Assembly: GCF_013315695.1 (NCBI RefSeq)
Contig: NZ_CP054353.1
DNA: 64,000 bases
Strand: one strand, 5' to 3'
Source of the DNA: Escherichia coli
GTDB lineage: Bacteria; Pseudomonadota; Gammaproteobacteria; Enterobacterales; Enterobacteriaceae
Part shown: piece after piece, positions 1,653-50,111 of the stretch
Numbering within the stretch: the stretch's first letter is position 1
How the letters are laid out: every line of letters begins with the position of its first letter
Notes under the pieces: generated by a model
What the model was told of the DNA's origin: nothing
Databases searched by the model: none
What the model saw: the letters and a program-made list of their open reading frames with translations, nothing else
Program-made: the position numbers and the translations under genes

Positions 1653-1752
1653 ATATCTGTAATAAGAAATAGCCCTCGCCGCTTCCCTCTACAGGAATGG
1701 CGAAGGGCTGTCGGTTTCGACATGGTTGGCCATCATATGATGGCCTTTTTTA
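1653..1752 (+). ncRNA. sdhX: 3'UTR-derived sRNA of the sdh-suc transcript (SdhX/RybD-like), ending at the sucD terminator
   Basis: Position immediately downstream of the sucD stop, two consecutive hairpins, the second followed by a T-run; assignment rests on recalled K-12 biology, exact 5' end not determinable from sequence. Confidence 0.5.
1728..1751 (+). terminator. rho-independent terminator of the sdh-suc operon
   Basis: Perfect palindrome ggccatcatatgatggcc followed by tttttt. Confidence 0.75.
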
Positions 1753-1857
1753 TTCGGGCACTAATCTGAAAAGTTTGCCCACTGCTTTTTTTCCCCATCC
1801 TCTGCGCAATAATGCCCGGCGAAATATCTCCTCTCCGTTCTGTAAAAGGATTTATAC

Positions 1858-3051
1858 ATGAAGAAAATTGTTCTGCCGGTTGCTCTGGCCCTGATGGGTA
1901 TAAATGCGGACGTTTATGCGGCCGATGTAAAGATCGATATTTTAAGTGCAACAGTGAAAGATAAACGCATTGAGGGGGCATCGGTGACGCTGCAACGCAA
2001 TGGCGCACAATCTGTTTCTGGCACCACAAATGCCTCGGGCAGCATTAATCTGGGCTCTTCCTTTGCCGATGATCAAGATGCTTTGTTAATCGTCAAAAAA
2101 GAGGGCTATTCTAATCTGGTGGTCAAATGCCCGTGTGCGGGCATGACTTATGCGATTAGTCCGGTAATGACTAGTCTGGATGGCATGCGTGTCGTATTGA
2201 GCTGGGGCGAAAAGCCTTTTGATCTTGATTCGCATTTGATCTTCCCTGGCGGACATATTTATTTTGATAGTAAAGAGGGGACTGATGCCAATCTGGATGT
2301 TGATGATACGGATAGCTATGGACCAGAAACTGTCACTATCAGCAAAAAGCATTTTGGCGAAAGTTACATCTATGCCGTGCAGGACTATAGCAATAAAGGG
2401 TTGCCCAACAGTAATTATCTCTCTGCCAGTAAGGCAAAAGTGTTTGTTTATGTAGGGGGCTCCCTGGTGCGTAGTTATAGTGTCCCTGCTGGAAAACGAG
2501 GGAACATCTGGACCGTGTTTAAACTCAATCCAAACGGCGAGTTTGAAGATATCAACTCTGTTACCACCGCCAATTTTAACGACACCACATTAGGCGTCAG
2601 GGATTTAGCCACTGTGATAATGCCTGCGACGGGTTCTTCAACTCCGGCTTCACCTGCGATGCAAAACAGTGGATATACTCAACTGGCAAGAAAATATAAT
2701 CGTGAAGGCGAAGCTGTTTACAAAACCGGTCAACTTGAGCAAGCCATTCAACTCTTCCAACAGGCAACAGAATTAGACGGCAATTACGGTCAGGCATTTA
2801 GTAACCTGGGTCTGGCTTATCAGAAAAATGGCAACATCGCGGAAGCGATTTGGGCAAATCGTAAAGCGATCTCGTTAGCCAGTGGAGCAAATGCGGCGAC
2901 AACGCGCGCTAACTCCTATTATAACATTGCCAAAATTTATGAAACTGCAGGACAGAACGCTGATGCATTGCAGCATTATCAACTCGCTTATGCGGAAAAA
3001 AATAAGCCCTCTTATGAAGAGGCCATCGCACGGGTAAAAGCGAAAATGTAG
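1858..3051 (+). CDS. exported protein of unknown function with C-terminal TPR repeats (middle region resembles a YfaP/DUF2135-like domain)
   Basis: 397 aa; N-terminal signal peptide MKKIVLPVALALMGINADVYAA; AAGGA RBS upstream; C-terminal TPR-like repeats; absent from the K-12 sucD-cydA interval as I recall it. Confidence 0.7.
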   Translation: MKKIVLPVALALMGINADVYAADVKIDILSATVKDKRIEGASVTLQRNGAQSVSGTTNASGSINLGSSFADDQDALLIVKKEGYSNLVVKCPCAGMTYAISPVMTSLDGMRVVLSWGEKPFDLDSHLIFPGGHIYFDSKEGTDANLDVDDTDSYGPETVTISKKHFGESYIYAVQDYSNKGLPNSNYLSASKAKVFVYVGGSLVRSYSVPAGKRGNIWTVFKLNPNGEFEDINSVTTANFNDTTLGVRDLATVIMPATGSSTPASPAMQNSGYTQLARKYNREGEAVYKTGQLEQAIQLFQQATELDGNYGQAFSNLGLAYQKNGNIAEAIWANRKAISLASGANAATTRANSYYNIAKIYETAGQNADALQHYQLAYAEKNKPSYEEAIARVKAKM

Positions 3052-3428
3052 CGGTTAGCAAACAGGAGGCTATGTGGTGTTAGCCTCCTTACCCCCAGGC
3101 CAGTGGGAATATAGTAATCATCGTTTTTAACATTCAACGTCCAGATTCTGCTTGAGCGTAAAAACAAGTCTTTAGATATTTTATAAATGATGAAGGGCTG
3201 GAAAGTGGTTGATGTCACCGACTCACGATCGTTATCGCCAGCAAAGCTTTTTTGCCATTGCACCAGACGCACCTTCAACCATTTTGGCGACGAATCAACT
3301 GCTACCGCCACCAGGCTTGTTTGCCATTTTCCCGTACCTAATTCGTCGCTTGCCGCACTGTTGGCTGTAATCAATGGCCCAATGCCCAACCAGATACTTC
3401 TATATCCGATTGGGTTTTGTTAATTGCG

Positions 3429-4025
3429 TTACCCCTTAAACGTTAACCTCGGTCGAAATCTGACCGCTGGCTGAATTAATCCGGCTTCTTGTTGGGCTTC
3501 GATAACCGGACCAATATCTTTATAAGCAGCTGGCGCTTCTTCAATACGCCGTTCTTCGCGCAATGTGACGCATTGCCACGGCAACGTTGACTCTGCAGTC
3601 GCGCGTGAGCGCATGGCCTGCCGACGCTGGCTGCGTCCTGCTCCGTGACTGCAAGACCACAGCCACTCCGGGTTGCCGCAACCAACCGCAAGCCAGGAAT
3701 AATCACCCATGGAACCGGGGATTAACGCCAGATCGCCCGCGCGTGCCGGTGTTGTGGCCACCACAGCGCCAACGGGGACGCCATTGCCGGGATGAAAATC
3801 TGGCGTCGCGCACGTCTGGCGCACATAACCTGGGTGGTCTGGTAGCTTCACTTCTGCAAAATCAAGCAGTTGTGTTACTGCTTTTTCTTCCAGCGGCAGT
3901 TCGTCCGGCAGCAGTACGCGGGCACTGGCACCTGATGGACGAGATAATGAAACAATATTGTTGGCGCGGGAAAGTTGGATCCCTTTGCGCAGAAAGGCTT
4001 TATCAAGCCTTGAAAGATGATGCAT
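3429..4025 (-). CDS. RtcB-family (RNA 3'-phosphate ligase) C-terminal domain protein; probably a truncated remnant
   Basis: 198 aa containing the RtcB C-terminal hallmarks PGSMG, SHGAGR and EAPAAYKDI...RP...KG; the N-terminal metal-binding half of the family is missing. Confidence 0.55.
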   Translation of the reverse strand: MHHLSRLDKAFLRKGIQLSRANNIVSLSRPSGASARVLLPDELPLEEKAVTQLLDFAEVKLPDHPGYVRQTCATPDFHPGNGVPVGAVVATTPARAGDLALIPGSMGDYSWLAVGCGNPEWLWSCSHGAGRSQRRQAMRSRATAESTLPWQCVTLREERRIEEAPAAYKDIGPVIEAQQEAGLIQPAVRFRPRLTFKG

Positions 4026-4276
4026 AACGCTGTCCTGAAATATAGACGTTAAACAACCCCCTGTATTGCGAGGGTAATTTTGTCTTTCCGGTCAGCAGCC
4101 AGCAAAAGGGAAAGAAAACGCGCGTAGTGTATGTGGCGATAGCAAGTTTTACAAGTGGTAAATCTGGCTTATTGTTAAAGAGGAATTATCTTTTGTGAAG
4201 TCTTTTAAGGCCATGACTCATTCAATTTAACCGGACATAGATAATATATAACATAGGGTATATAAATTTATCATTG

Positions 4277-4405
4277 TATACTTGTCATAATTCAAGTTGC
4301 ATGTGCTGCATCGATGTTCGCTCACCCAGGTCACTTACTTATGTAAGTTTCTGGAAATTCATTATTTGTTCCCTTCCTGCAACTTGACTTATTTAGAGTA
4401 TATTC
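4277..4405. repeat. ERIC/IRU intergenic repeat, degenerate copy
   Basis: Contains ttcaagttgcatgtgctgc and cgctcacccaggtcacttacttatgtaag; about 80% identical to the copy at 49934-50062, which matches the ERIC1R/ERIC2 primer sequences. Confidence 0.8.
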
Positions 4406-4614
4406 ATGTATATGAATAATATTCTTGCAATAATAGCTTTAAAGTATTGCATGCGGATAACTGAGGTGAAATTCCTGTTTTAGGATTATTGTCACTTTAT
4501 TTTCCTGGTTAGACATATAGCTGACTGGTTTGTTTATTTGAATTATGATATTCATTAGTGCTACTGTTTTTTATAAAATAATTTTTGAATTGTTATTTTT
4601 TCACGGACGGCATT

Positions 4615-5520
4615 ATGCGAGGAAAAATACCTAAAACGGAACTGCTGGTGACTTTTGAGGTCGTCGCACGTCATGAAAGTTATACCAGAGCGGCAGAGGA
4701 GTTAGCGTTAACCCAAAGTGCAGTATTCAGACAAGTAAGTGCGCTGGAGGAATTTTTACATACTCCGTTATTTTCACACTCTAAAAAACGCATTTTTCTT
4801 AATGATGCAGGGAAGTATTACCTGGGGATAGTAAAAGAAACATTAAATAAGCTGGAACGCGATACCAATACCATTATGACCTGGCAGCCTACGGTTCAGG
4901 TTATTGAACTTGCCGTTAATCCTACTTTTAGTACCCACTGGTTAATCCCAAATTTACATGAATTCACAAAGTTACATCCCGATATTATTGTTAATATTCA
5001 TTCTTTAGCTAATAACGGCGACTTTCTTAATCGGGAGTACGATGCTGTCATTATGCGCGAAAATTTTTGCGCGCCCTGGGCGGAAGTAGAGTATCTCTTT
5101 GAAGAGGAGATTTTGCCGGTATGCAGCGGCAGTTTGCTTGCAATGTCCGATCAAAAACTGTCAGTGGCAGAACTGCTTACTGAGTTACCACTTCTGCATC
5201 AAAGCACCCGTATTACTGGCTGGGAAGAGTGGTTTGCTTTATCTGGCGTTAGCAGTCCGCTGGTCAATAACGGACCACGTTTCGATTTGCTTTCAATGCT
5301 GATTGCCGCCGTGCGCTCTAATCTCGGCGTGGCGCTGTTACCACGGTTCGCTATTCAACATGATTTGGATAGTGGCGATATGGTGATTCCCTGTGATGTG
5401 CCTATTCGTACCGGTAATCGTTTTATTATGACGTGGCAGGAAGAGAAGTCTGACTCACCGCACTTGCAGCAATTTCGTGAATGGTTGCTGGCGAAATCGG
5501 TCGTACCGCAGGAGATGTAA
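4615..5520 (+). CDS. LysR-family transcriptional regulator
   Basis: N-terminal HTH (ESYTRAAEELALTQSAVFRQVSALE) plus substrate-binding domain; ATG at 4615 preferred over the TTG-extended ORF at 4585. Confidence 0.85.
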   Translation: MRGKIPKTELLVTFEVVARHESYTRAAEELALTQSAVFRQVSALEEFLHTPLFSHSKKRIFLNDAGKYYLGIVKETLNKLERDTNTIMTWQPTVQVIELAVNPTFSTHWLIPNLHEFTKLHPDIIVNIHSLANNGDFLNREYDAVIMRENFCAPWAEVEYLFEEEILPVCSGSLLAMSDQKLSVAELLTELPLLHQSTRITGWEEWFALSGVSSPLVNNGPRFDLLSMLIAAVRSNLGVALLPRFAIQHDLDSGDMVIPCDVPIRTGNRFIMTWQEEKSDSPHLQQFREWLLAKSVVPQEM

Positions 5521-5523
5521 AAC

Positions 5524-5550
5524 CTGCGCCTGGCGGGATGCCAGGCGCAG
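5524..5550. terminator. bidirectional hairpin between the convergent LysR and adenosyltransferase genes
   Basis: 10-bp perfect stem ctgcgcctgg / ccaggcgcag with 7-nt loop. Confidence 0.6.
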
Positions 5551-5553
5551 TTA

Positions 5554-6156
5554 TTACCAGTCGATACCCGGCTGGGCCTGAATGCCGTTATCAAAAGCAT
5601 GTTTGACGGGGCGGATTTCGCTTACCGTATCCGCCATTTTTAATATCTGACTGTGGCAACCGCGTCCGGTGACAATGACACTTTGTTGTGCCGGGCGGTT
5701 TTGCAGAGAAGCGATCACTTCTTCGGTGTCCAGATAATGGTAAGCCAGCATATAGGTCAGCTCATCAAGCACCACTAAGTCGTAACGCTTGTCAGCCAGC
5801 ATCCGTTTGCTTTCCGACCAGACCTCTTTCGCCGCGTCGATATCCGCTTGCCGGTTCTGTGTCTCCCAGGTAAAACCGGTTCCCATAATATGAAACTCAA
5901 CCCCCAGCGGCTGGAGAAGGTTGTATTCGCCGTTGTCCCATTGCCCCTTGATGTACTGCGCAACCCCCACCGTTTTGCCATGACCCACCGCGCGCGTCAC
6001 AGTACCAAACGCGGCAGTGGATTTCCCTTTGCCGTTGCCGGTGAAAACAATCAAGATCCCTTTTTTCTCTATCGCCGCCGCGACGCGCGTATCGACCTGT
6101 TCCTTCAATTTCTGCTGGCGCTGCACATGCCGTTCAGTTGAAATTCGCGCTTCCAT
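5554..6156 (-). CDS. ATP:cob(I)alamin adenosyltransferase (CobA/BtuR family), second copy
   Basis: 200 aa; P-loop VFTGNGKGKSTAAFG; near-colinear with E. coli BtuR as recalled. Confidence 0.85.
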   Translation of the reverse strand: MEARISTERHVQRQQKLKEQVDTRVAAAIEKKGILIVFTGNGKGKSTAAFGTVTRAVGHGKTVGVAQYIKGQWDNGEYNLLQPLGVEFHIMGTGFTWETQNRQADIDAAKEVWSESKRMLADKRYDLVVLDELTYMLAYHYLDTEEVIASLQNRPAQQSVIVTGRGCHSQILKMADTVSEIRPVKHAFDNGIQAQPGIDW

Positions 6157-6165
6157 TCATTTTCC

Positions 6166-7818
6166 TTAATGTCCCGCAGGGCAACTGGCGCAGCGGTGTT
6201 TCTGCTCAAACTGACTAAAGAAATTATTGCCTTTATCATCTACCAGGATGAATGCGGGTAAATTTTCCACTTCCATCATCCACACCGCTTCCATACCCAG
6301 CTCCGGGTATTCCAGGCAACGCAGACTTTTGACATATTCTTGCGCCAGTAACGCAGCTGCACCGCCAATACTTCCCAGATTGAAGCCGCCATGTTTGTGA
6401 CAGGCATCGGTGACCTGCTGGCTGCGGTTACCTTTCGATAACATCACCAGACTGCCGCCAGCCGCCTGGAAGGTATCGACATAACCGTCCATTCGACCGC
6501 CCGTGGTTGGACCCAGTGAACCGCAGGCCATGTTCTCCGGTGTTTTCGCCGGGCCAGCGTAATAGACAATATGATGCTTCAGGTAATCCGGCATCGGTTC
6601 GCCGCTATCCAGCCGCGCTTTTATTTTGGCGTGGGCGATATCGCGCGCCACTACGATGGGACCACTTAACGACACGCGGGTGCCTACCGGTAATCTGGCG
6701 AGATCCTGCATCACGTCACGCAACGGACGATTTAGATCCAGCTGTACATGTTGCGCGTGATTTTCTTCCCGCAGTGAGGCTGGAATATATTGCCCCGGAT
6801 TGTGTTCGAGTTTTTCCAGCCAGATACCGTGCTTGTTAATTTTTGCTTTGATATTGCGATCCGCAGAACAGGAGAGCGTCATAGCTATCGGGCAAGAGCC
6901 ACCGTGACGCGGCAGACGAATGACGCGAATATCATGAGCGAAATATTTACCCCCAAATTGCGCACCAATACCAAATTGCTGACTGGCCTCGAGCAATACT
7001 TTTTCCAGCTCAATATCACGGAATGCTTGTCCTTGCTCGTTTCCGCTGGTGGGCAAATTGTCGTAATATTTCGTTGAGGCCAGCTTGGCAACTTTTAAGG
7101 TTTGATCGGCTGAAAGCCCTCCGACGACAAAGGCGATGTGGTAAGGCGGGCAGGCAGCGGTGCCCAGCGATTTCATTTTTTCGATTAAAAATGCGGTCAG
7201 TTTTTCTGGTTGCAATAGGGATTGGGTTTCCTGATAAAGCGCGGCTTTATTGGCAGAGCCGCCCCCTTTATTAATACAGAGAAAATGGTACTCATCACCA
7301 GCGACGGCGCTGATATCAATCTGCGCCGGGAGATTGGTTTGCGTATTGACTTCGGTAAACATATCCAGTGGCGCATTTTGTGAAAAGCGCAGATTATTTT
7401 CCTGAAAAGTGGTGTAAATGCCTTTGCTTAAGGCTTCAGCGTCGTTACCTCCGGTCCATATCTGTTGCCCTTTACTGGCAACAATAGTTGCGGTGCCGGT
7501 ATCCTGACAGTTGGGTAATACCCCTTTTGCTGAGACTTCAGCATTACGTAATAACTGCAACGCAACGTATTTATCATTACTACTGGCGTGCGGATCGTTA
7601 AGAATGCTGGCGACCTGTTGCAAATGAGCGGAACGTAAGAAAAAAGAGGCTTCATAAAATGCCTGCCGGGCAAGCAGCGTTAATGCTTCAGGAGCGATTT
7701 TTATCACTTCTTCGCCGTCTAATTCCGTTACTGTAATATGTTGATCGCTAATTAATGTATATTCTGTACCGTCTTTATTTTGTAGAAACGGTTCTTGCCA
7801 GATAAATGGTTTGGACAT
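6166..7818 (-). CDS. fumD: class I (Fe-S) fumarate hydratase family; probable mesaconase/fumarase FumD
   Basis: 550 aa, FumA/FumB-like length and N-terminus ([11 protein letters not shown]...); lies in the methylaspartate operon. Confidence 0.8.
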
Positions 7819-7925
7819 ATTTCACTTTTCACCTTAAACGTTAGTTTTACTTAATTGCCGTCTAACTTCATGATCCGGCTTATAAAAATGCGTAGTCATT
7901 GGCTTCTGATTGCTTAAGATCCCCC

Positions 7926-9206
7926 TCAGGGCAGAGCAACGTTCGATTCATTGGGTTTTAATGCTTTACCCCGACAGCCCTCGCCGAAATGTTCGCCTTC
8001 CCACCGACTCACCATCGCAGCGCCCATTGCGTTGCTCATGACGTTTGTCGCGGAACGCCCCATATCAAGGAACGGATCAACGCCCATCAGCAAGATCAGC
8101 CCCGCTTCCGGAATATTGAACTGGTTGAGCGTGGCGGCGATAACCACCATTGAGGCGCGTGGTACGCCAGCCATTCCTTTCGAGGTCAACATCAGGATCA
8201 ACAGCATGGTGATTTGCTCACCGATGGATAAATGGATATTGCAGGCCTGGGCGATGAAAACTGTGGCGAAGGAGCAGTAGGCCATTGATCCAACGAGATT
8301 AAATGAGTAGCCAATGGGTAAGACAAAGCTGGCAATTTTGGGGGAAACGCCAAATTGCTCCAGTTTTTCAAGCGTTCCCGGAAAAGCCGCTTCAGAACTG
8401 GATGTGGTAAATGCCAGCAGGGCGGGTTCCGAAAGGGCACGGGTCAGGCGTCTGATGCAGGGGCCGACATAAACGATGGCCAGACCGATAAGCAGCACCC
8501 AAAGTAACAACATGGTGAAATAAAATTCACCCATAAAGATCCCGGCGCTCACCATAACTGCCAGTCCTCGTTCAGCAATCAATGCTGAAATAGCGGCGAA
8601 TACGGTCAGGGGAGCGAAGAGCATGACGTAGCCAGTGAGCTTTAACATGGCATGTGCCAGCGAATCTAAGGCGTGAACGATGGCGCTGCCTTTCTCACCA
8701 ATCGCCGTCAGGCTACAGCCGAGGAAAATTGAGAACACCACGATTTGCAAAATTTCATTGTGCGCCATGGCATCGACAATGCTGGTGGGGAAAGCATGCG
8801 AAATAAATACTTTTAGTGTAAAGGGTTCTGACGCGACCACTCCGGTGGTTTCGGCACCGTGTGCAACAAAATTAATTCCTGTGCCTGGCATGAAGAAATT
8901 TACCGTTATCAAGCCTAAGGCAATTGACAGCAATGAGGCGCAAATAAATAAAAAGAGTGTTTTAGAAAAAATACGACCAAGGGCTTTGGCATCTCCCATT
9001 TTAGCTATACCTACCACCAGGGTAGAGACCACTAACGGAGCGATAATCATTTTTATCAGTCGTAAGAAAATCGTCGTGAATATCGATATTTCTTGCGCAT
9101 AGAGTTTTGCGGTTTCCGGTGAAGCAGTGTTATTGAGCACTACGCCGATAATCATTCCAAGTACCAGCGCCAAAAGAATCATCGTGGTTAAACTTATTTT
9201 CTTCAT
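7926..9206 (-). CDS. DctA-like dicarboxylate/amino acid:cation symporter (DAACS family)
   Basis: Polytopic membrane protein of DctA-like length; start moved to the ATG at 9206, which is preceded by GGAGGA. Confidence 0.8.
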   Translation of the reverse strand: MKKISLTTMILLALVLGMIIGVVLNNTASPETAKLYAQEISIFTTIFLRLIKMIIAPLVVSTLVVGIAKMGDAKALGRIFSKTLFLFICASLLSIALGLITVNFFMPGTGINFVAHGAETTGVVASEPFTLKVFISHAFPTSIVDAMAHNEILQIVVFSIFLGCSLTAIGEKGSAIVHALDSLAHAMLKLTGYVMLFAPLTVFAAISALIAERGLAVMVSAGIFMGEFYFTMLLLWVLLIGLAIVYVGPCIRRLTRALSEPALLAFTTSSSEAAFPGTLEKLEQFGVSPKIASFVLPIGYSFNLVGSMAYCSFATVFIAQACNIHLSIGEQITMLLILMLTSKGMAGVPRASMVVIAATLNQFNIPEAGLILLMGVDPFLDMGRSATNVMSNAMGAAMVSRWEGEHFGEGCRGKALKPNESNVALP

Positions 9207-9251
9207 TTTTTCCTCCATCAGGTGCACGGCGATAAATCAGAATCAGGAGAA

Positions 9252-9283
9252 GTAGATGCCTGAATAGAGATTCAGGCATCTAC
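9252..9283 (-). other. intercistronic stem-loop (14-bp perfect stem, 4-nt loop) inside the operon
   Basis: gtagatgcctgaat agag attcaggcatctac; no U-run follows on the transcribed strand. Confidence 0.5.
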
Positions 9284-9366
9284 CTGCTATTACAACCTTA
9301 CAAATAGCTGAAGTGTTGAACTGCAATAAGTGACGGGATGTCAGTTGGCTAAAAGTATTCGGATTT

Positions 9367-9684
9367 TTACAAATCGAAACTCATATTTAATAAAGGTGCA
9401 TGTTGCTGTGCACCATAGACATCATTGTCACCTACATTCCCGGAGATAATATCTCGTGGCATGACGATTTTTACTGCGTTAGAAGGATCAAACCAGACAA
9501 TACGGTGAATAAAGTCAGGTTCAACATGATATAAGCGCGCAATCAGTTCTGGGGTTAATTGCCCTGATGATTTAACTCGCTCATAGTTTTCTTTCGTTTT
9601 AAATAAAATATCTAAAACCAGTTCGTAAGGTCCGGCATTTTTCGAACGAATGACTTGCGCCAGTGAGACAATTGACTGTTTCAT
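9367..9684 (-). CDS. small protein of unknown function (DUF4387/AtuB-like by recollection)
   Basis: 105 aa ORF whose start overlaps the stop of the upstream gene by 4 nt (translational coupling). Confidence 0.6.
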   Translation of the reverse strand: MKQSIVSLAQVIRSKNAGPYELVLDILFKTKENYERVKSSGQLTPELIARLYHVEPDFIHRIVWFDPSNAVKIVMPRDIISGNVGDNDVYGAQQHAPLLNMSFDL

Positions 9685-11051
9685 GCCTGAACTCCTTCTG
9701 GCGTCACCTGTTCAATATGGAAATCAAAACGCAGAGCGTCGTTGGCTTCAATCAGGTGATATATGGAAAATTCGTATACCGGCCCGCCCTGGATATCAGA
9801 AGGGGAGAACGGGAACGCCAGATTGCCTGCGGTAGCGATGCGGTTTTCATAGCCGTAGTGCAGCATGGTAGAGCGCACCAGCGAGCAAACGCTATTGGCA
9901 ATTTCCTGGGTCGGTGCAACTACATCAAGGACAATCCCCAGCTCATGCCCGGCAGTTTGCATCGGTTCATGGTCGCCCATCACCCCGTTTTTGCCGTACA
10001 GGTGGAAATTGATGCGAATGCTGTCATCGTCGAGCGACAGGTTACGCCAAACGCTGGTTTTGACTTCATCGATGATTTTATCGATCCCGGCGATCATGAT
10101 CGGGTCGCGCGTTCCTGCGATGGTCAGACAGCGGAAGCCCACCCGTCGCGCACCTTCCAGTTTCAGGGCATACGGCGTTTCTTCATGCTTAGAACCGCTG
10201 ACGTACACTTCGCCGTCATTGACCGCTTTAAATGTGCAGCCTTTCAGGTTCAACACGCCGCCAGGTCCAGGCAGGAAGTAGGGATCGGATTTCTCATACA
10301 GTGTGTGTGCAGCCGCTGACGTTTCGGTAAATTTACGCTTCGGATTAAATGTCTTCAGCGTAAAGCCGTTGTCATCAATGATGCCCATCGCACAGTCAGA
10401 GCCTGAGCCGGGCGTTGCGGCGATTGCCGCGCATTCAAGGATTTTCCCACAATGCAGCGCCAGACCTTCATCAAAGCCTTGCATGATCGGGAGCGCAGCA
10501 AAGCAGGCCGGGTCGTAAGCGCGCCCGCCCAGCACCACTTGCGCGCCTTCTTTCAGCGCCCGCTGGAAGGGTTCGATGCCCATTTGCGCGACGATATACG
10601 TACTTTCGTCAATCGCGTCGTGGGTTAACGGCGGGACAAAATCCAGCGCCGTGATTTTGCCGTTATCCAGCGCCTGGTGGACGATGGCTTTGTCAACGTC
10701 TGCCGGGATCAACGCCATCGAGAACGAGAGGTGCTCTTCCTGGGCAATCTCATGAATTATTTCTCGGCACCACTCCAGGTGTGGTGCGGCACCAGAACCG
10801 CCAGCTGTTCCGATCACCACCGGTATATTATTTTGCACGCCTGCGGTGATCATATAGCGCAGATCGCGCTTGACCCCTGCGCGATCGGTAAACGGTTTGC
10901 CTGCCCCGAGGTAGTGGGGGCCTGGATCGGAAGAGCCTGCATCAACGGCGATCAGATCGGGCGATTCTGCCATCGCTTTGCGGAAGCTCTCTTCCGGGAA
11001 TCCATACCCGAGGATTGCCGTTGGCGATAAGACTTTAAAAGAACGAGCCAT
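9681..11051 (-). CDS. DUF1446 (AtuA-like) family protein, function unknown
   Basis: 456 aa; family assignment is from memory of the N-terminal region and is unverified. Confidence 0.6.
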   Translation of the reverse strand: MARSFKVLSPTAILGYGFPEESFRKAMAESPDLIAVDAGSSDPGPHYLGAGKPFTDRAGVKRDLRYMITAGVQNNIPVVIGTAGGSGAAPHLEWCREIIHEIAQEEHLSFSMALIPADVDKAIVHQALDNGKITALDFVPPLTHDAIDESTYIVAQMGIEPFQRALKEGAQVVLGGRAYDPACFAALPIMQGFDEGLALHCGKILECAAIAATPGSGSDCAMGIIDDNGFTLKTFNPKRKFTETSAAAHTLYEKSDPYFLPGPGGVLNLKGCTFKAVNDGEVYVSGSKHEETPYALKLEGARRVGFRCLTIAGTRDPIMIAGIDKIIDEVKTSVWRNLSLDDDSIRINFHLYGKNGVMGDHEPMQTAGHELGIVLDVVAPTQEIANSVCSLVRSTMLHYGYENRIATAGNLAFPFSPSDIQGGPVYEFSIYHLIEANDALRFDFHIEQVTPEGVQA

Positions 11052-11054
11052 TTG

Positions 11055-12296
11055 TTAATCCTTAGCCTGCAACAGCGCGATAGTACGATTCATTTCGTTG
11101 AAGACGATATCGAGGCCTTCGTCAAAGCCCATCCCTGGCTTTACCAGCATACGCATAGGGCGAGCGGCAAGGGCGACGTGGACACAGGTGCGGGCACTGA
11201 CATCAGTTTCATTGCAGGTGCCGCCCTGGTACGCTTCCATGCTGTGGCTGTTGCAGTAAAGAACCGCATCGACGATGTTGTGAATACTGCCCAGATCCGG
11301 GGTTTTGATTTGCACCATGTGACAACTGGCGGCATCAGTGAAATCAACAATATCCTGGTAGGTGTTACACCATTCATCGGCCACAATTTTCACGCCGGAA
11401 CCGAGGCGCGTCAGCTCTTTGGTAATCGCGGTCAGCAGGCGAATTTGATCGGGCTTGTTACCGGCATCGACCGGCCCTTCAATGTAGAGCGGCAGGCCTT
11501 GCGCTTCTTTTTCCAGGCTGGCGATGTATTGCGCACAGCGAAGCGGATCCATATCGAAGATCAGGCCGATAGTGCCGTATACATCGATGTGCAGGGTTGG
11601 GTGGTAGCGTGCGCTGGTGCGCTTGCTCAGAATACGATCCGACAGCCAGCGGACATATTCGCGCAGTTTTTCACCTTTAAAGCCCAGTTTCTCTTCGACG
11701 TTATTAATCAGTGCATGGGGCAGCACGTCGATGCCCTTAAGGATCATCTTATCGACGGCGATATATCGATCGTCCCCGCTCTGACCAAATAATGGAATGG
11801 ATTCCGCCACGCGTGGCAACTGCCATTCATCACAGACCACTTCAGTTTTCAGACGGCCGGTTGCCAGCGCGGTAGCATCAAGCAGCGCCTGTGATAATCC
11901 GTAGCGCACGGCGGTATGCAGCAAGTTGCCGTCAATACGCAATTTGTCGAAGAAACGGGCATTCGGCAGGAAAGCATCCACATCGCGGCCTATCAGTAAT
12001 GGCTTGATATGGTCGTTGAGGAACGGAATAAAGTGCTCAGCGAGGAACAGTGGATCGCGACCACCTGCCCCGGAATACTGTACGGCAGCACAGTCACCTA
12101 CGGCGACCGCGCCGTTTTCCAGAATCAACTGTACCGATACGCACTCCCCGGCCTGACGAACGGCGTTAAACCCCTGTGTTACCGGCTCCCCGGTATAAAA
12201 AAAGCCGTCATGACCCGCTCCGTTTTTTATCGCCTGCTGGTCATCGAAATAGAATGAGGAGTAGCCAGCAGTGAACAGAGCCTGTTTTATTTTCAT
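11055..12296 (-). CDS. mal: methylaspartate ammonia-lyase (beta-methylaspartase)
   Basis: 413 aa; N-terminus MKIKQALFTAGYSSFYFDDQQAIKNGAGHDGF matches clostridial MAL. Confidence 0.9.
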   Translation of the reverse strand: MKIKQALFTAGYSSFYFDDQQAIKNGAGHDGFFYTGEPVTQGFNAVRQAGECVSVQLILENGAVAVGDCAAVQYSGAGGRDPLFLAEHFIPFLNDHIKPLLIGRDVDAFLPNARFFDKLRIDGNLLHTAVRYGLSQALLDATALATGRLKTEVVCDEWQLPRVAESIPLFGQSGDDRYIAVDKMILKGIDVLPHALINNVEEKLGFKGEKLREYVRWLSDRILSKRTSARYHPTLHIDVYGTIGLIFDMDPLRCAQYIASLEKEAQGLPLYIEGPVDAGNKPDQIRLLTAITKELTRLGSGVKIVADEWCNTYQDIVDFTDAASCHMVQIKTPDLGSIHNIVDAVLYCNSHSMEAYQGGTCNETDVSARTCVHVALAARPMRMLVKPGMGFDEGLDIVFNEMNRTIALLQAKD

Positions 12297-13741
12297 TATG
12301 GTCTTCCTATTAATTTACTGTGGGATACAGCATTGATGTCATCTACAACCATCTGGAATGTCGGTTGGCGTCCTTCAAAGCGTGCGCGTTCCGCAACGTA
12401 ATCGTGGTGGAGGTCGAGAATATCTTTTGGCAATGGAACGGCTCCGGCTTCCAGTACGCGTATCGCGCCGGTGTTGTCACGGACCGGAAGAATTTTGCCC
12501 GCGTTGCAGGCGGCTGGCGCAAACGGCACATCCAGTACGCCCGCTTCAAATGCCAGCACCGTACCGCGCGCAATATCACCATTACCCAGTTCGAACACTT
12601 TATTCAGTACCGCGTGAACCTCGCTCTTAATCAGTTCAATTTCCAGTTCAACCGCAGGGCACGGCGGGAATTTCTGCTCGTTGACCATGTTGAGCATCTG
12701 GCGGGAGGCTTTCAGCCCCTGAATGTTGGCAGCGGCAGTCGGGATGCCCCAGGCTTCGTGCGGACTTTTGGTGATGACTTTGGTGGCACCAGACATCCCC
12801 GCGACGGCTGCGCCCCAGGAGATAATAGCGAACGCTTTCGATTCGTCTTCCGGAAAGCCGCCCATCCACTGGTGAAACACGGTACTTAATTCATAGTCGG
12901 TATAGCCATAGCTCTGAAAATATTCGTGTGCAAGTTCACGCAGAGACTGGATCGCCGCAACATCCTGCGTCAGGCTGCCGACCTGTCCATAACCAACGGT
13001 GATAGATTTCACACCCTGTTCCAGCGCCAGTAATCCTTCGATTATCGCGATAGAGTGCGAGATAAACGGCGGGATCAGGGTACCCGTTAGTGGGCCAAAC
13101 GGTTCGCGGTTGATGCGGATCCCGTGTTCTTCATACATCCCCATTAAACGGTCGCAGTACTGCCAGTCGCGGATCGATTTTTCCAGCGTTACGCGCTTGG
13201 CATACGGAATGTTGTAGGAAATGCCGCCGCCTTCATAACTGGTAAAGCCGCTGGCCATCGAGATTTCAGCCAGCAGACGCGCATCTGGCGTGCCGTGGCG
13301 GATCTGTAGCGGTTTTTGCAAAGTTTCGGTGAGGCGACGGCAAGCTGCGACGCCGTGGTTAACGACCGGTAAACCGTTCAGTTTAGAGGTTCCGGCTTCG
13401 ATGGATTTTTTAATCCCTACAGCCGCTTCTTCGTACCGATTCAGACGGGTATATGCGTCGATGGTGCTCGGCAGCAGATCGCATTCTTCTTGTAGTGTTT
13501 TCAGTAGTTCGATGTGTTCGTCCATCAGCGCCACGCCTGCGCGCGGTTGGCTAAGAGTTTTACCTTCCTTGTCTGCTTTCAGCAGGGCAAGAGAGAAGCG
13601 TTTATGCTCAGGAATGGTTTGTTGGTATTTAACGCCATCTTCAAAGTTTTCAACATCCTTGCCGGTTTCCCAGGTTTTCAGTACCTGTTGCCGCTCGGTC
13701 ATGAATTCGTCATGGGTTAATTTCTTATTTCGAAGTTCCAT
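12296..13741 (-). CDS. glmE: glutamate mutase epsilon (E) subunit
   Basis: 481 aa; N-terminus MELRNKKLTHDEFMTERQQVLKTW resembles clostridial GlmE/MutE. Confidence 0.88.
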   Translation of the reverse strand: MELRNKKLTHDEFMTERQQVLKTWETGKDVENFEDGVKYQQTIPEHKRFSLALLKADKEGKTLSQPRAGVALMDEHIELLKTLQEECDLLPSTIDAYTRLNRYEEAAVGIKKSIEAGTSKLNGLPVVNHGVAACRRLTETLQKPLQIRHGTPDARLLAEISMASGFTSYEGGGISYNIPYAKRVTLEKSIRDWQYCDRLMGMYEEHGIRINREPFGPLTGTLIPPFISHSIAIIEGLLALEQGVKSITVGYGQVGSLTQDVAAIQSLRELAHEYFQSYGYTDYELSTVFHQWMGGFPEDESKAFAIISWGAAVAGMSGATKVITKSPHEAWGIPTAAANIQGLKASRQMLNMVNEQKFPPCPAVELEIELIKSEVHAVLNKVFELGNGDIARGTVLAFEAGVLDVPFAPAACNAGKILPVRDNTGAIRVLEAGAVPLPKDILDLHHDYVAERARFEGRQPTFQMVVDDINAVSHSKLIGRP

Positions 13742-13759
13742 TGATTGCAGCCTTAATTG

Positions 13760-15148
13760 TTATAGGGTTAAGCATTGAATACTGGTGCGCGCGGCGGCCA
13801 GCGGATCGACTCTGGCGACGTTTGCCAGCAGTGGTAATAGCCCCCGGGAATCGCGGTAATATTCAAATTCGGTCGGTAAGAGAATGCGTTTACCGTCGTC
13901 GTTTAACTCGCGGTATTTCAACCAGTGATGCATATCGAACTGACTGGCACGCGAGAGCCATCCGCCGGATCCGACGACTTTACGCACGGTTGTCAGGTCA
14001 CGTCCCATCTGTAAATCGACATTGCCGACGCAGGTGCAGACCTCTTTTTTGGTGCCCGCATGTCTTTCGGTGGCATAACCCACACACAGTCCGGCCAGGA
14101 CTGTATCGAAATATTTTTCTTCTGCATTCGCGGGTAAGTAGTCGGGATGAGCGACTAGATGACGGAGGTAATGATAAAAAGCGTCCAGCTGTGCGGGTTG
14201 CTGAGCAAAATTCACATTGACTAACTCTTTCGCACTTTCACCAACCACCATTGCCGAGACGCGCATTCCCAGATCGCCTTCCACCGTCCGTTTCACGAAG
14301 GGTTCCGGTACGCCGTGTAAAACGGTGTCGGGCGAGAGCGTGTTGGCACAGGCGGAATAGACATCGGTGGTTGCGCCACCCATGTCGATCAGTATGAACT
14401 CTTTCCAGCTGTGATCGACATTACTGATTGCCTTAACCAGTTCAAAGACTGTCCACGGTGTCGGCATTGGTTCTTCGCCTGTTTTATCAACAACGACATC
14501 CAGCCCTTTCCCTTTAACGATGCGTTTAAGGAATATGTCGCAGATAGCCTGGCGTGCAGCTAAAGGGTTCGGATGGTCAAGATCGGGCAGAACGTTGTCG
14601 ACGATGGTCAGGTCTTTATGCCCTAGGATCTCCTGCACCTCGTCCTGAATATCCCGGTTTCCGGCATAAATAATGGCGCAGTCGAGTTTGGATTCTGCCA
14701 GCACACGGGCGTTATTCAGGCCGTAGCTTTCTTCTCCGCCGTCGGTGCCGCCGGTGAACAAGAGAATATCGGGCTGCGTTTCTTCCAGTGCCTGGATATC
14801 ACGGCGGTTCAGCTTGTAGGAGTAATATTGCGCAATTTTAGCCCCCGCAGAGTGAGCGGTTACTTTCGCGGTTTCCAGGGTGATAGAAGGCACCAATCCC
14901 ATTGCGGCAACCGCCAGCCCACCTTTGGCAGAGGAGGAATACTTCAATGCAACCTCACCGTTGTTAAACAGGGGGAGGGTATTATCTACGTTTAACACCA
15001 GGTTCAGGCTGGAGAAAAACCCCTTCGCCAGATGATGGGTGGTGGTTGGGGTCAGTACGTGGTTAACCAACGTTAACGCGTCCCCCTCCCGGGCGAAGAG
15101 GGCTGCTTTGGTCCACGTCGATCCAATATCGACAGAGACGATTTGCAT
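13760..15148 (-). CDS. glmL: glutamate mutase L component (MutL/GlmL)
   Basis: 462 aa, the size of clostridial GlmL; sits between the S and E subunit genes. Confidence 0.8.
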   Translation of the reverse strand: MQIVSVDIGSTWTKAALFAREGDALTLVNHVLTPTTTHHLAKGFFSSLNLVLNVDNTLPLFNNGEVALKYSSSAKGGLAVAAMGLVPSITLETAKVTAHSAGAKIAQYYSYKLNRRDIQALEETQPDILLFTGGTDGGEESYGLNNARVLAESKLDCAIIYAGNRDIQDEVQEILGHKDLTIVDNVLPDLDHPNPLAARQAICDIFLKRIVKGKGLDVVVDKTGEEPMPTPWTVFELVKAISNVDHSWKEFILIDMGGATTDVYSACANTLSPDTVLHGVPEPFVKRTVEGDLGMRVSAMVVGESAKELVNVNFAQQPAQLDAFYHYLRHLVAHPDYLPANAEEKYFDTVLAGLCVGYATERHAGTKKEVCTCVGNVDLQMGRDLTTVRKVVGSGGWLSRASQFDMHHWLKYRELNDDGKRILLPTEFEYYRDSRGLLPLLANVARVDPLAAARTSIQCLTL

Positions 15149-15597
15149 CAGATTGCCTCTTCAAGAATACGAGTATCAACGTCATGACGTTGGTTGATAT
15201 CGTGTGCCATCAGCTGACAAACATCTTCTAAGTCATGACTTGGGGCAAAGACGCGATCAAATCCCATCTCTTTGAATTTGGTTTCCACGTCAGCGAAGTC
15301 ATGTTTTCCGACCACCAGGTTACCGCCCACATAGAGCAGGATGTCCCCCAGTCCACGCTCGATGCAGCGTTCGCGCATGCCCAGACAGTCGATATCGCCA
15401 TGCCCATAGATAGAGGAGACGACAATCGCGTCAGCGCCAGTTTCAATGGCCGCATCAATATATTCGTCCTGGCTGACCATTACGCCCAGATTAATGACTC
15501 TGAAGCCATGGTTGCTAAAAACGCGGTCCAGAACTTTATTGCCTACTGCATGGCAGTCCGCGCCAATAACGCCAATCACAAGTGTTGCTTTCTTCAT
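15148..15597 (-). CDS. glmS: glutamate mutase sigma (S) subunit, cobalamin-binding
   Basis: B12-binding domain; start taken at MKKATLV (15597), preceded by AAGGA, rather than the longer ORF from 15660. Confidence 0.85.
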
Positions 15598-16143
15598 GGG
15601 TAATCCTTTGTAAGACAGAGAGTAAAATAAGTTACACACGTCGTATTTATGGCCGTTCATAACGGCACAGGTTTAATATCACAGGAGTGTCTTTATCTGA
15701 CCGTAATGTTGCAATTGATCTATTTTCAAAATGTCTTTCGGGAAATGATTGTTTAAAGTATGTTGTTAAATTCTCATGTTAATTCAGTGTGTTATGTCAA
15801 CTAATGTCATGAATGTTAAATTTTTAAAATTAACTTGATTTGGTGTATTGAGGTATTTGTGATCTACTTCTAATTTGCATTTTAGTGATATGGGTTTAGC
15901 CATGAGTAAATGCATTTCATAAAATTTAAGTCGAATTTCACTGCAATTCATCTCTGCTTAATGTAAAAATAATGTTGAAAATAACAAATGGTTAATGATT
16001 CATGCGAATTATGACCTTAGTTAGCTCTTTTGATTTTTCGTAAAAAAGAGAGGTACATGAAGGTGCTACCAGTATGAGTAACGTTAATCAAAGGTTTTAT
16101 TACGTCTGGCAATAACGCAGGCCATTTTCGCGACTGGGTGGAT

Positions 16144-16566
16144 TTAATCAGTATAATCCTCATACAATAGTTCACGATTAACTGAACCGTTAACGGGGAT
16201 TTGGTGTTGAAATTTAGAAATGGCGGAGTCAATTAATGAAGACAATATCGAAAAAATGACAGTGTCAGAATTAATTTCAATTAATCCTTCTCGTTGTTGA
16301 CCAAAAAAGATATTTATCTTGATTTCATTTGTACTACGGCAATCAATATGTAGTAATTTTTGATCGCTGAGATTTTCTGTTTCATAAATGTTTTTGGCGA
16401 TAGTCGGATGTATTGATGCCAGACATCTGCTCAGATAAGCCAGATCCTTTAGGGAACACCCCGCTGAGTAGAGGATGTCAGAGAATTTTTGTGTGTTAAC
16501 TGTTGTCTCTGAAGCGTATGTTGCATTGACAGGAAGGGTGTTGAAAGAGATTTGAGATGGGAGCAT
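16144..16566 (-). CDS. hypothetical protein, no recognisable domain (AT-rich)
   Basis: 140 aa ORF, Ser/Thr/Asn-rich N-terminus; same strand and 80 bp downstream of the 314-aa ORF. Confidence 0.55.
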   Translation of the reverse strand: MLPSQISFNTLPVNATYASETTVNTQKFSDILYSAGCSLKDLAYLSRCLASIHPTIAKNIYETENLSDQKLLHIDCRSTNEIKINIFFGQQREGLIEINSDTVIFSILSSLIDSAISKFQHQIPVNGSVNRELLYEDYTD

Positions 16567-16646
16567 TATTTAAATCTTTCCGTGAGTAATAAAAATTAAT
16601 CCCCGGGCATTGTTTAGCAATATTTGCCACAGGTAATATATAAAAA

Positions 16647-17591
16647 TTAAAGTATTTGATTGGCATCGGTTAACTGATCAATAACCAGTGCCAGATTGGT
16701 AAACATTTTGAAAAAGCGATACTGGCTCGGAATATCTCTTTCAAAGACGAAACATTCAATGTCATTGTTTGAAAAATAAAGGACTAGTGTTGCTGATTCG
16801 TCAGGAAAAATATGGAAATATATCTGGTTACCAGAAGGAGGATAGTCCAGAAGAAGGGTATCTTTGCCCGTCACATACCTGTTGTGGTCGTGGATGCTGC
16901 GCTCACACTTCATCAGAGGTGTCATGATACTCATGTATTCATCTGATGTTAATATATTAAAATCACCATCCATTTTAAAGAAACGATAAAGTAACAGTAC
17001 ATCCTCTTGCGTAACCGGTTCGTTTGTTTTTAGAGGGAAATAAGTGGGAACCAGAAGATGAGGTTCTAATCTATTTTGTTGAGCGCTATAACTAAATTTG
17101 AACATAAATTCCGGATCGCTCATCAATTGAGCGACATAATTATGCCTGGCTTCAAAAATTTTAACTTTTATCAGGTTAAATAAGTCTGTTTCGTCATCCT
17201 GTATTAAAAGACATTGGCCATAGCAGCCAGGCTTTTTTTCATTATAAGCAGAAACGGTTATTCTGTCAGGAGTGTCAACGTTATATCCAAAAGCCAGATA
17301 GTGACCGTCCTCATCGAGATTTGTTTCCAGGTTATTTAAATTTATCACATGAAGTGTTTGCAATGCTGATTCAATGAGCTGTTGACTCTCTGAGGTAAAT
17401 GTTTCGCGCTGCGTTGTATAAAGTGTATCGATTCCAACGACTATCCGATATGGGTCAAGGATGGCGGCAATCATCTTTATTACCTGCACAGCCACGGGTG
17501 ATGTCATTGATTCGTTATCTGTTTTTAGAGGATCATTAGATGGCCAACCTGAGAAGCGATTGACAGCCGAACCGATATTATCAGGACTCAT
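16647..17591 (-). CDS. hypothetical protein, no recognisable domain (AT-rich)
   Basis: 314 aa ORF, acidic and Phe/Tyr-rich; GAGG RBS about 9 nt upstream of the ATG. Confidence 0.6.
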   Translation of the reverse strand: MSPDNIGSAVNRFSGWPSNDPLKTDNESMTSPVAVQVIKMIAAILDPYRIVVGIDTLYTTQRETFTSESQQLIESALQTLHVINLNNLETNLDEDGHYLAFGYNVDTPDRITVSAYNEKKPGCYGQCLLIQDDETDLFNLIKVKIFEARHNYVAQLMSDPEFMFKFSYSAQQNRLEPHLLVPTYFPLKTNEPVTQEDVLLLYRFFKMDGDFNILTSDEYMSIMTPLMKCERSIHDHNRYVTGKDTLLLDYPPSGNQIYFHIFPDESATLVLYFSNNDIECFVFERDIPSQYRFFKMFTNLALVIDQLTDANQIL

Positions 17592-17949
17592 AGCAGCAAC
17601 CTCATTGTAATCAAGCGAGGCGCTGAGCGTACTCGGCTATAGAAAAACTAACTTGCAAAAATCGCTCATTTTTCATTTATCAGGCGAAAGTGGTCTCTGT
17701 TCACTCAGAAACAATCACTCCCGCTAAGTCATACCTGTTTCATCGATACACTTAAGTGATTATTACTAATGAAACAATAACATAACGGGCTTACGGCCGG
17801 TGCTCATAAAGGCAACAATCAATTAACTTTGATAAAAATATGTTATGTAAAATAGCAACAAATTGGCTAATCTAATCAATTGGTATTATAAAAAGTGGAT
17901 AAGGCGGTTCTGTTAAATAAAACACTGGTTTTTTATCTATACCTTTTCA

Positions 17950-27477: not shown

Positions 27478-27553
27478 GGGTCGTTAGCTCAGTTGGTAGA
27501 GCAGTTGACTTTTAATCAATTGGTCGCAGGTTCGAATCCTGCACGACCCACCA
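27478..27553 (+). tRNA. lysT: tRNA-Lys (UUU)
   Basis: 76 nt gggtcgttagctcagttggtagagcagttgacttttaatcaattggtcgcaggttcgaatcctgcacgacccacca. Confidence 0.97.
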
Positions 27554-27688
27554 ATCGCTAAGGTGGAAGCGGTAGTAAAACGTGAAGGATAACGTTGCGT
27601 CAGCAACGGCCCGAAGGGCGAGACGAAGTCGAGTCATCCTGCACGACCCACCACTAACATAGTTAGTTGTAGTATCCAGCGTAGTATT

Positions 27689-27764
27689 GGGTGATTAGCT
27701 CAGCTGGGAGAGCACCTCCCTTACAAGGAGGGGGTCGGCGGTTCGATCCCGTCATCACCCACCA
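27689..27764 (+). tRNA. valT: tRNA-Val (UAC)
   Basis: 76 nt gggtgattagctcagctgggagagcacctcccttacaaggagggggtcggcggttcgatcccgtcatcacccacca. Confidence 0.97.
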
Positions 27765-27766
27765 CC

Positions 27767-27842
27767 GGGTCGTTAGCTCAGTTGGTAGAGCAGTTGACTT
27801 TTAATCAATTGGTCGCAGGTTCGAATCCTGCACGACCCACCA
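27767..27842 (+). tRNA. lysW: tRNA-Lys (UUU)
   Basis: Identical 76-nt Lys tRNA sequence. Confidence 0.97.
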
Positions 27843-27893
27843 CTAATGACGGTGGGTTCGGTGGAAGTAGTTTGTAGTATCCAGCGCAGTATC

Positions 27894-27969
27894 GGGTGAT
27901 TAGCTCAGCTGGGAGAGCACCTCCCTTACAAGGAGGGGGTCGGCGGTTCGATCCCGTCATCACCCACCA
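27894..27969 (+). tRNA. valZ: tRNA-Val (UAC)
   Basis: Identical 76-nt Val tRNA sequence. Confidence 0.97.
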
Positions 27970-27972
27970 CTC

Positions 27973-28048
27973 GGGTCGTTAGCTCAGTTGGTAGAGCAGT
28001 TGACTTTTAATCAATTGGTCGCAGGTTCGAATCCTGCACGACCCACCA
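27973..28048 (+). tRNA. lysY: tRNA-Lys (UUU)
   Basis: Identical 76-nt Lys tRNA sequence. Confidence 0.97.
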
Positions 28049-28096
28049 ATTTTAAAGATTGGTTCCGAGTAGAAATCTTTCAGGTAACACCCGTAT

Positions 28097-28172
28097 GGGT
28101 CGTTAGCTCAGTTGGTAGAGCAGTTGACTTTTAATCAATTGGTCGCAGGTTCGAATCCTGCACGACCCACCA
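28097..28172 (+). tRNA. lysZ: tRNA-Lys (UUU)
   Basis: Identical 76-nt Lys tRNA sequence. Confidence 0.97.
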
Positions 28173-28205
28173 TCCTGAATGATTAAAGCAGCATAATCCC
28201 GCAAG

Positions 28206-28281
28206 GGGTCGTTAGCTCAGTTGGTAGAGCAGTTGACTTTTAATCAATTGGTCGCAGGTTCGAATCCTGCACGACCCACCA
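28206..28281 (+). tRNA. lysQ: tRNA-Lys (UUU)
   Basis: Identical 76-nt Lys tRNA sequence. Confidence 0.97.
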
Positions 28282-49933: not shown

Positions 49934-50062
49934 TATACTCGTCATACTTCAAGTTGCATGTGCTGCGTCTGCGTTCGCTCACCCCAGTCACTTACTTATG
50001 TAAGCTCCTGGGGATTCACTCGCTTGTCGCCTTCCTGCAACTCGAATTATTTAGAGTATATC
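49934..50062. repeat. ERIC/IRU intergenic repeat
   Basis: Contains atgtaagctcctggggattcac (ERIC1R) and cgctcaccccagtcacttactt (reverse complement of ERIC2). Confidence 0.9.
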
Positions 50063-50111
50063 CATTTATTATCTTTCTGCGCACTTCACGGTTCGCAGAT
50101 ATCTGGAGCAT

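Follow-up and report, generated by a model that had tools for sequence, protein, structure and literature searches.

In the Escherichia coli chromosome analysed here, the gene of a LysR-type regulator (hereafter lysR) stands head-to-head with the remnant of an RtcB-like gene and tail-to-tail with an operon linked to glutamate fermentation, whose promoter lies at the operon's far end. LysR regulators are often transcribed divergently from their targets, an arrangement that is typical but not obligatory, and the layout of this locus raises the question of which genes the regulator controls. An earlier note on this DNA proposed that either the original target had been lost or the regulator acts at a distance.

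Gene layout around lysR

The window, that is, the whole stretch of 64,000 nucleotides that was analysed, runs from sucD towards cydA and beyond. The features around lysR are the following.

3429-4025, minus strand: remnant of an RtcB-family paralog, 198 aa, matching Pfam RtcB (PF01139, 1.8e-33) in two stretches
3746-3754: deletion junction with 9-bp microhomology, where two BLAST segments against strain 7/2 overlap by 9 bp
4615-5520, plus strand: lysR, 301 aa, LysR-type regulator assigned to the GcvA subfamily (Pfam HTH_1 and LysR_substrate)
5524-5550: hairpin with a perfect 11-bp stem, between the convergent lysR and cobO (-25.9 kcal/mol, z -4.9)
5554-15597, minus strand: methylaspartate-pathway operon glmS-glmL-glmE-mal-atuA-DUF4387-gltP-fumD-cobO, identified from Pfam, the RefSeq annotation and PMC4682846

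The earlier note had placed the regulator divergent from a truncated RtcB-like gene, convergent with the 3' end of a glutamate operon and about 10 kb from the promoter of that operon, and all three statements are borne out. Positions 4026-4614 are the exact ATG-to-ATG spacer between the RtcB-like ORF and lysR; it measures 589 bp and is AT-rich (34% G+C). At its other end, lysR meets cobO, the final gene of the methylaspartate operon, with stop codons at 5520 and 5554 and 33 bp between them, while glmS starts at 15597, approximately 11 kb from lysR. The hairpin in the convergent interval is probably a two-way terminator or insulator.

The operon has the expected membership, with Pfam matches to B12-binding, MutL, Met_asp_mut_E, MAAL_N/C, Fumerase/Fumerase_C and CobA_CobO_BtuR, and its set of glmS, glmL, glmE and mal together with fumD and a corrinoid adenosyltransferase agrees with a published cluster (Kronen and Berg, 2015, Figure 5; PMC4682846). 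In that figure, a putative LTTR is drawn as a member of the cluster glmS-glmL-glmE-mal-DUF1446/AtuA-gltP-fumD-cobA-LTTR of E. coli O157:H7, Citrobacter, Klebsiella, Salmonella and Yersinia, and the same study reported no detectable activities of the pathway for E. coli O157:H7 under laboratory conditions (PMC4682846). A search of the literature on the regulator found nothing beyond this drawing. In Salmonella, Citrobacter, Klebsiella, Lelliottia and Buttiauxella, the glutaminase gene glsA is found between gltP and fumD; E. coli is without it (window 7819-7925).

The product of lysR has both domains of a LysR-type regulator, an N-terminal winged helix-turn-helix (PF00126, 64.7 bits against a cutoff of 26.6, residues 9-67) and a C-terminal substrate-binding domain (PF03466, 98.7 bits against a cutoff of 28, residues 96-293) in its 301 residues. 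Its best NCBIfam match is the GcvA model NF008352 (1.2e-65), with a score of 221.5 bits that remains under the cutoff of 288, and the protein is therefore classed within the GcvA subfamily but not as GcvA itself; the best match in the PDB is also GcvA (8y6u, 7e-43). The gene is under purifying selection, with a dN/dS of 0.076 within E. coli and, in comparisons with other genera, a dN of about 0.09 with dS saturated.

The RtcB-like gene, by contrast with the full-length allele, is broken. It retains an RtcB domain, whose C-terminal stretch corresponds to profile positions 316-426, and differs from the 465-aa allele of strain 7/2 by an in-frame internal deletion of 801 bp that leaves 198 of the 465 codons; the copies of the 9-bp microhomology are 801 bp apart in the strain 7/2 locus. 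As judged by alignment to TTHA1785 of T. thermophilus, the deletion takes out approximately residues 92-358 and most catalytic motifs with them. DISCG, GSGNHF, HSGSR and HN, all seen in the full-length allele, are gone, Cys/His metal ligands are among the losses, and the remnant keeps only the HGAGR region of a catalytic core that, when complete, comprises the Cys/His metal ligands and the GMP-accepting His. The lesion is recent and rare, as the deleted allele occurs in five of the 296 complete E. coli genomes that carry the paralog. The 465-aa protein itself represents a distinct RtcB clade and scores under the cutoffs of NF007153 and TIGR03073.

Two further observations concern this flank. 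The 3' part of the remnant (3428-3754) is 94.5% identical to strain 7/2 and the remainder (3746-6200), which comprises the 5' part of rtcB, the spacer, lysR and cobO, is 99.0% identical, a difference that suggests recombination with a breakpoint at the deletion junction or close to it. At 1653-3428, where strain 7/2 has mngR-mngA-mngB behind sucD, the lineage of the window instead has a gene for a 397-aa TPR-repeat protein (1858-3051) and, on the minus strand, an ORF of 125 aa that matched no family (3012-3389); the complete genomes that agree with this flank over its whole length number five.

The 589-bp spacer and its variants in Escherichia

The spacer is a mosaic, made up of the following parts.

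4026-4133, minus strand: leader and promoter-proximal segment of rtcB, 108 bp, 95-99% identical in five contexts
4134-4596: variant-specific AT-rich segment, 463 bp, present as a whole in 144 of 5426 complete E. coli genomes
4258-4281: gtatat-N13-tatac inverted repeat with 5-bp arms (GTATA 4258-4262, TATAC 4277-4281)
4277-4402: ERIC (IRU) element, 84% identical over 136 bp to a second copy at 49934-50069
4597-4614, plus strand: ribosome-binding region of lysR, 18 bp, from whose first base homology to strains 142 and 042 begins

Homology of the window with strain 142, which contains a hut operon, and with strain 042 is limited to 4026-4133 and to the positions from 4597 onward, and the last 18 bp are the only sequence upstream of lysR that the window has in common with other E. 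coli variants. The rtcB leader, whose five contexts include the hut-operon variant and a variant from which lysR is deleted, was also considered as a structured RNA and rejected as such, its fold being non-significant (z -1.8). The 463-bp segment had no homolog among the other fetched loci; its global alignment with the spacer between hutH and lysR gave a z of about 4, mostly due to the common last 18 bp and to AT-richness. In the lineage of the window, this segment must carry the lysR promoter, and a weak sigma-70-like match, CTGACT-17-TATGAT, is found at 4521-4549. The notion that it has brought lysR and the rtcB paralog under the control of a common region in the approximately 144 genomes concerned finds no support.

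The ERIC element recognized in the earlier note is confirmed, and the segment is a dispersed repeat, found in 5425 of the 5426 genomes at a median of six places per genome. The inverted repeat described along with it exists at the place given; as an operator, however, it was rejected, since its frequency is that of chance and its right arm is nothing else than the first five bases of the ERIC. Five-bp inverted repeats with spacers of 10-16 nt number 10 in 4026-4614 against 6 +/- 3 expected, and 60% of shuffled sequences contain one or more whose spacing is exactly 14. Dyads of the 4-N7-4 type are not enriched in the spacer either (two observed, 3.4 expected). An Rfam scan of 3300-4800 returned a sole match, V_AS5, which falls on the ERIC and is sub-threshold (19.9 bits against 96, E 0.39).

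How the two neighbours of the spacer are inherited can be read from the 5426 complete E. coli genomes. The paralog of rtcB is carried by 296 of them, lysR by 1127, glmE by 1131 and the conserved box upstream of glmS that is described below by 1135; lysR is thus inherited with the glm operon and not with rtcB. The adjacency of lysR and rtcB is limited to about 144 of the approximately 1127 genomes that carry lysR. At least five arrangements occur in Escherichia.

mngRAB-rtcB-589 bp-lysR: strain 7/2, with a full-length 465-aa rtcB and an identical 589-bp spacer
TPR gene, hypothetical gene, deleted rtcB, 589 bp, lysR: the window and four other genomes
sucD-rtcB-hutU-permease-hutD-hutI-hutG-hutH-lysR: strain 142
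sucD, approximately 665 bp, lysR, without rtcB: 042 and O157:H7
mngRAB-rtcB (intact)-389 bp-truncated glmE, with lysR through mal deleted: E. coli DETEC-S792 (locus 6001-8273), a decayed island in which the N-terminal third of glmE remains

These arrangements bear on the reading in which the RtcB paralog is, or was, the true target of the regulator, controlled through the 589-bp region and later lost by deletion. The head-to-head layout, common among LysR regulators and their targets, is found with an identical spacer in strains whose rtcB is full length, such as 7/2, and would fit such a role. Nevertheless, most carriers of lysR lack the adjacency, in about half of the genomes with rtcB the two genes are separated by a hut operon of approximately 8.7 kb, O157:H7 and 042 have no rtcB at all, and the gene is intact where lysR is deleted. 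It is also near the ortholog of lysR in no other genus, and the only upstream DNA linked to rtcB is the 108-bp leader, in which the glmS box is missing. It is therefore very improbable that RtcB is the target, and a role for it as the lost target of the earlier proposal is not supported. We are highly confident that rtcB is not a conserved partner of lysR and that their adjacency is secondary.

The hut operon deserves separate consideration. In strain 142, the cluster (locus L003, 11163-18904; also found in locus L005) is Pseudomonas-like and consists of hutU, a permease gene, hutD, hutI, hutG and hutH; no gene for the HutC repressor was found in it, and hutH and lysR are 270 bp apart. Scraps of the 3' end of hutH and of the hutH-lysR spacer persist upstream of lysR in 042, O157:H7, E. 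whittamii and Escherichia sp. MOD1-EC7003, and these remains indicate that in the ancestral Escherichia arrangement the hut operon separated rtcB from lysR, and that it has been lost on several occasions. The breakdown of histidine produces glutamate, on which the glm pathway acts. In Escherichia, lysR might accordingly have controlled the adjacent, same-strand hut operon as well, or originally, its loss leaving glm as the only target; the missing hutC, the short distance to hutH and the hutH remnants that precede lysR in most Escherichia variants are in line with this. However, hut genes do not adjoin the orthologs of approximately 30 species from other genera, the rtcB-hutU spacer offers no box-like site (its best match has six mismatches, at the level of chance), and lysR is kept at full length in the approximately 85% of its carriers that are devoid of hut. 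Regulation of hut by lysR thus appears quite unlikely.

The region between rtcB and lysR is then probably a lineage-specific junction of two unrelated modules within the variable island between sucD and cydA, rather than a functionally shared regulatory region.

The glm cluster in other genera and a candidate operator

The comparison with related genomes that the earlier note had proposed was made by scanning one genome per species, which yielded approximately 34 loci with lysR orthologs at 80-93% identity, from Citrobacter, Salmonella enterica subsp. arizonae and diarizonae, Klebsiella oxytoca, grimontii and michiganensis, Enterobacter, Lelliottia, Pluralibacter, Buttiauxella and other Escherichia. 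In all of them lysR converges on cobO-fumD-...-glmS, and among those outside Escherichia none has rtcB beside lysR. The neighbour upstream of lysR varies, being a divergent sumT in Citrobacter, a PocR-like AraC regulator in Salmonella and Klebsiella, or else DltD, an L,D-transpeptidase or a RIO kinase, as does the neighbour upstream of glmS (cydA, sumT or mngR). On this linkage, it is likely that lysR regulates the glm cluster.

Among more distant relatives, the orthologs of Yersinia enterocolitica (63% identity) and Yokenella (57%) do lie divergent from glm genes, the former from sumT-pduX-glmS-...-gltP, with fumD-cobO following lysR, and the latter from an operon for B12 uptake combined with glm. 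Another ortholog (62%) is located at the far end of a cob operon of approximately 17 kb and converges on gltP-fumD-cobO, and a 68% homolog in Trabulsiella is an exception in having no glm genes nearby. The proposal of a lost target is upheld to the extent that the divergent partners of these relatives, including sumT of Citrobacter, are missing in Escherichia. Its alternative, action at a distance, fares similarly: no conserved divergent partner is present in the window, and lysR therefore most likely acts in trans, with the glm promoter approximately 11 kb away, its binding there being predicted.

Some observations on the flanks may be added. A PocR-domain AraC-type regulator gene is immediately upstream of lysR in Citrobacter, Salmonella and Klebsiella (loci L015, 7923-9595; L013, 8758-9645; and L025, 8913-9617), and the islands of these genera therefore hold a second regulator, which is missing from E. 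coli; Citrobacter also has sumT, for a tetrapyrrole methylase, immediately upstream of lysR. The sumT-lysR spacer of Yersinia enterocolitica (locus 9347-9600) contains an ERIC-like element interrupted by an insertion; the element seems to have inserted independently, in a different genus, ahead of the same regulator gene. Between glmS and cydA, at 16144-17591, the window has two AT-rich minus-strand ORFs of 140 and 314 aa, with no match in Pfam or NCBIfam; they are absent in Salmonella, Citrobacter and Klebsiella, in which glmS and cydA are immediate divergent neighbours.

Where the regulator might bind was approached by aligning the 400 bp upstream of glmS from eight genera. One conserved block, T(T/C)TGAAAATAGATCAATTGC, in which the T/C is the sole variable position, stands out amid poorly conserved AT-rich DNA. 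In the window it takes the following form.

15711-15730, minus strand: box TTTGAAAATAGATCAATTGC, with the dyad TTGA-N7-TCAA at 15715-15729, approximately 115 bp upstream of the glmS ATG

Except for that one T/C position, the 20-bp box is invariant in nine lineages whose flanking sequences have otherwise diverged; in the ninth of them, where the LysR protein is 72% identical, it is exact. The core ATCAATTG is invariant in 11 lineages, with Yersinia and Yokenella among those that keep it. The box is unique in the window and occurs once per genome in the 1135 E. coli genomes. The only other exact TTGA-N7-TCAA dyads of the window are in tRNA-Lys anticodon arms: five exact copies of TTGACTTTTAATCAA at 27505-28247 match the dyad pattern and are presumably anticodon arms of a tandem tRNA-Lys(UUU) array, unrelated to the box. 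The core ATCAATTG recurs in the AT-rich DNA that precedes cydA (17875-17882) and within the ORF of 314 aa (17122-17129).

A dyad of 4-N7-4 geometry (T-N11-A) is typical of LysR boxes, and the site at 15711-15730 is the best candidate in the window for the lysR operator, an assignment for which we would put the chances at close to even. The earlier note had held against its own reading a regulator that binds and controls only the promoter upstream of glmS, with a conserved site there. The conserved site is present, in nine lineages, and the regulator is its putative ligand. On the glmS strand, the interval from the box to glmS is devoid of a consensus sigma-70 promoter.

Counterparts of the box were sought elsewhere in the islands. 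The best matches in 4026-4614 and in the rtcB-hutU and hutH-lysR spacers have 6-7 mismatches, which is the level of chance. The spacer divergent from lysR in Yokenella contains the same TCAATTGC core, and a block conserved upstream of lysR in six other genera includes GGATCAATGAC; the GATCAAT that the box has in common with the lysR-upstream blocks would arise by chance with an estimated probability of about 0.05-0.1 and is only marginally above chance. Given that no box-like site is present upstream of lysR in the variant of the window, autoregulation, if ancestral, may have been lost there. Upstream of fumD, nothing convincing was found in Yersinia, locus L058 or E. coli. The hexamer CAATTG is not enriched as a marker of the regulon, with five observed against 5.2 expected in 20 kb.

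The box might also be bound by a different chromosomal factor, either IHF-like or an anaerobic or global regulator, with LysR acting elsewhere, for instance on fumD-cobO or on unlinked genes. Its core TATATCAATTGT also precedes glmS in the clusters of Morganella and Budvicia, which lack a lysR gene within 10 kb, and another factor could therefore bind it. In addition, the tightest linkage of lysR across all taxa is with fumD/cobO, and the box partly resembles an IHF core (ATCAA-N4-TT). On the other side, the IHF consensus is matched in part only, and 20 invariant bp exceed the usual extent of IHF sites. FNR and CRP sites need an N6 spacing, and a reading of the box as either was rejected on account of its TGA-N7-TCA spacing. 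The lack of a box-like element upstream of fumD also speaks against this alternative, and in genomes of the Morganella and Budvicia type lysR may simply be further away, since the 62% ortholog is at the far end of a cob operon, more than 10 kb off. Binding by another factor is thus rather improbable, and LysR is retained as the preferred candidate for the ligand of the box.

Implications and comparison with known systems

These features are best accommodated by a model with two modules. The first would be the RtcB-family paralog with its own 108-bp leader, inactivated by the 801-bp in-frame deletion, and the second lysR, as the dedicated regulator of the methylaspartate (glutamate mutase) cluster. 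The two would originally have been parted in Escherichia by the hut operon, in the order rtcB, hutU-permease-hutD-hutI-hutG-hutH and lysR; after one of the several losses of hut, the lineage of the window would have come to carry the 463-bp AT-rich segment instead, which then gained the ERIC. The regulator, a diffusible protein of the GcvA subfamily, would most likely operate in trans on the glmS promoter, which is 11 kb off, by binding to the TTGA-N7-TCAA dyad of the box. A dependence of glmS on activation would fit the missing consensus sigma-70 promoter, and the effector is probably a metabolite of the pathway.

The layout, which had been taken as anomalous, is an ordinary one: the regulator belongs to a metabolic island that is horizontally mobile, and its upstream flank has undergone repeated remodelling. 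The adjacency is rare and, among the genera sampled, restricted to Escherichia, and other strains have the hut operon or nothing in its place. The apparent anomaly is thereby removed, lysR being neither orphaned nor misplaced but a conserved regulatory module of a known metabolic island. At the sucD-cydA spot, rtcB, hut, mngRAB and the TPR gene vary while lysR and the glm operon stay together, and this mosaicism makes adjacency in a single genome a poor guide to the pairing of regulators and targets here. The box also provides a concrete operator candidate for the pathway in E. coli pathogens. It is conceivable, from conservation and linkage and with odds we would put a little below even, that the box and the GcvA-like regulator form a switch for glutamate fermentation by the methylaspartate pathway in pathogenic Enterobacteriaceae; if so, an effector found via the regulator would make the physiological role of that pathway testable.

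Several known systems offer points of comparison. The regulator of the window is the same gene, in the same cluster, as the putative LTTR of Kronen and Berg (2015; PMC4682846); that study lists it only as putative, without a site, an analysis of arrangements or a function, and its descriptions do not extend to the variants that contain rtcB, hut or the 463-bp spacer. The ERIC copy resembles the ERIC/IRU elements of Enterobacteriaceae in its length of approximately 126 bp, its intergenic position, its multiple copies and its TATAC...GTATA termini; it differs from them in nothing of substance and is a somewhat diverged copy. As in the rtcBA operon of E. coli K-12 with its divergent sigma-54 activator RtcR, an RtcB-family gene is head-to-head with a regulator gene, but the paralog of the window is accompanied by neither rtcA nor rtcR, and its neighbour is a LysR protein linked to another operon.

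With the GcvA/DsdC/AmpR branch of LysR regulators, the protein shares the architecture of HTH_1 and LysR_substrate domains, and the candidate site has the 4-N7-4 (T-N11-A) geometry that is typical of LysR boxes. It differs in its linkage to a glutamate-fermentation operon and, in the E. coli clade, in converging on the 3' end of that operon instead of diverging from its promoter. In the classical divergent pairs AmpR-ampC, DsdC-dsdXA and BenM-benA, the regulator faces its target, a layout that is shown by the Yersinia and Yokenella orthologs, divergent from glm-containing operons, and by that of Citrobacter, divergent from sumT. In the window, in contrast, lysR faces an unrelated and broken rtcB paralog, and the promoter that is its likely target is 11 kb off.
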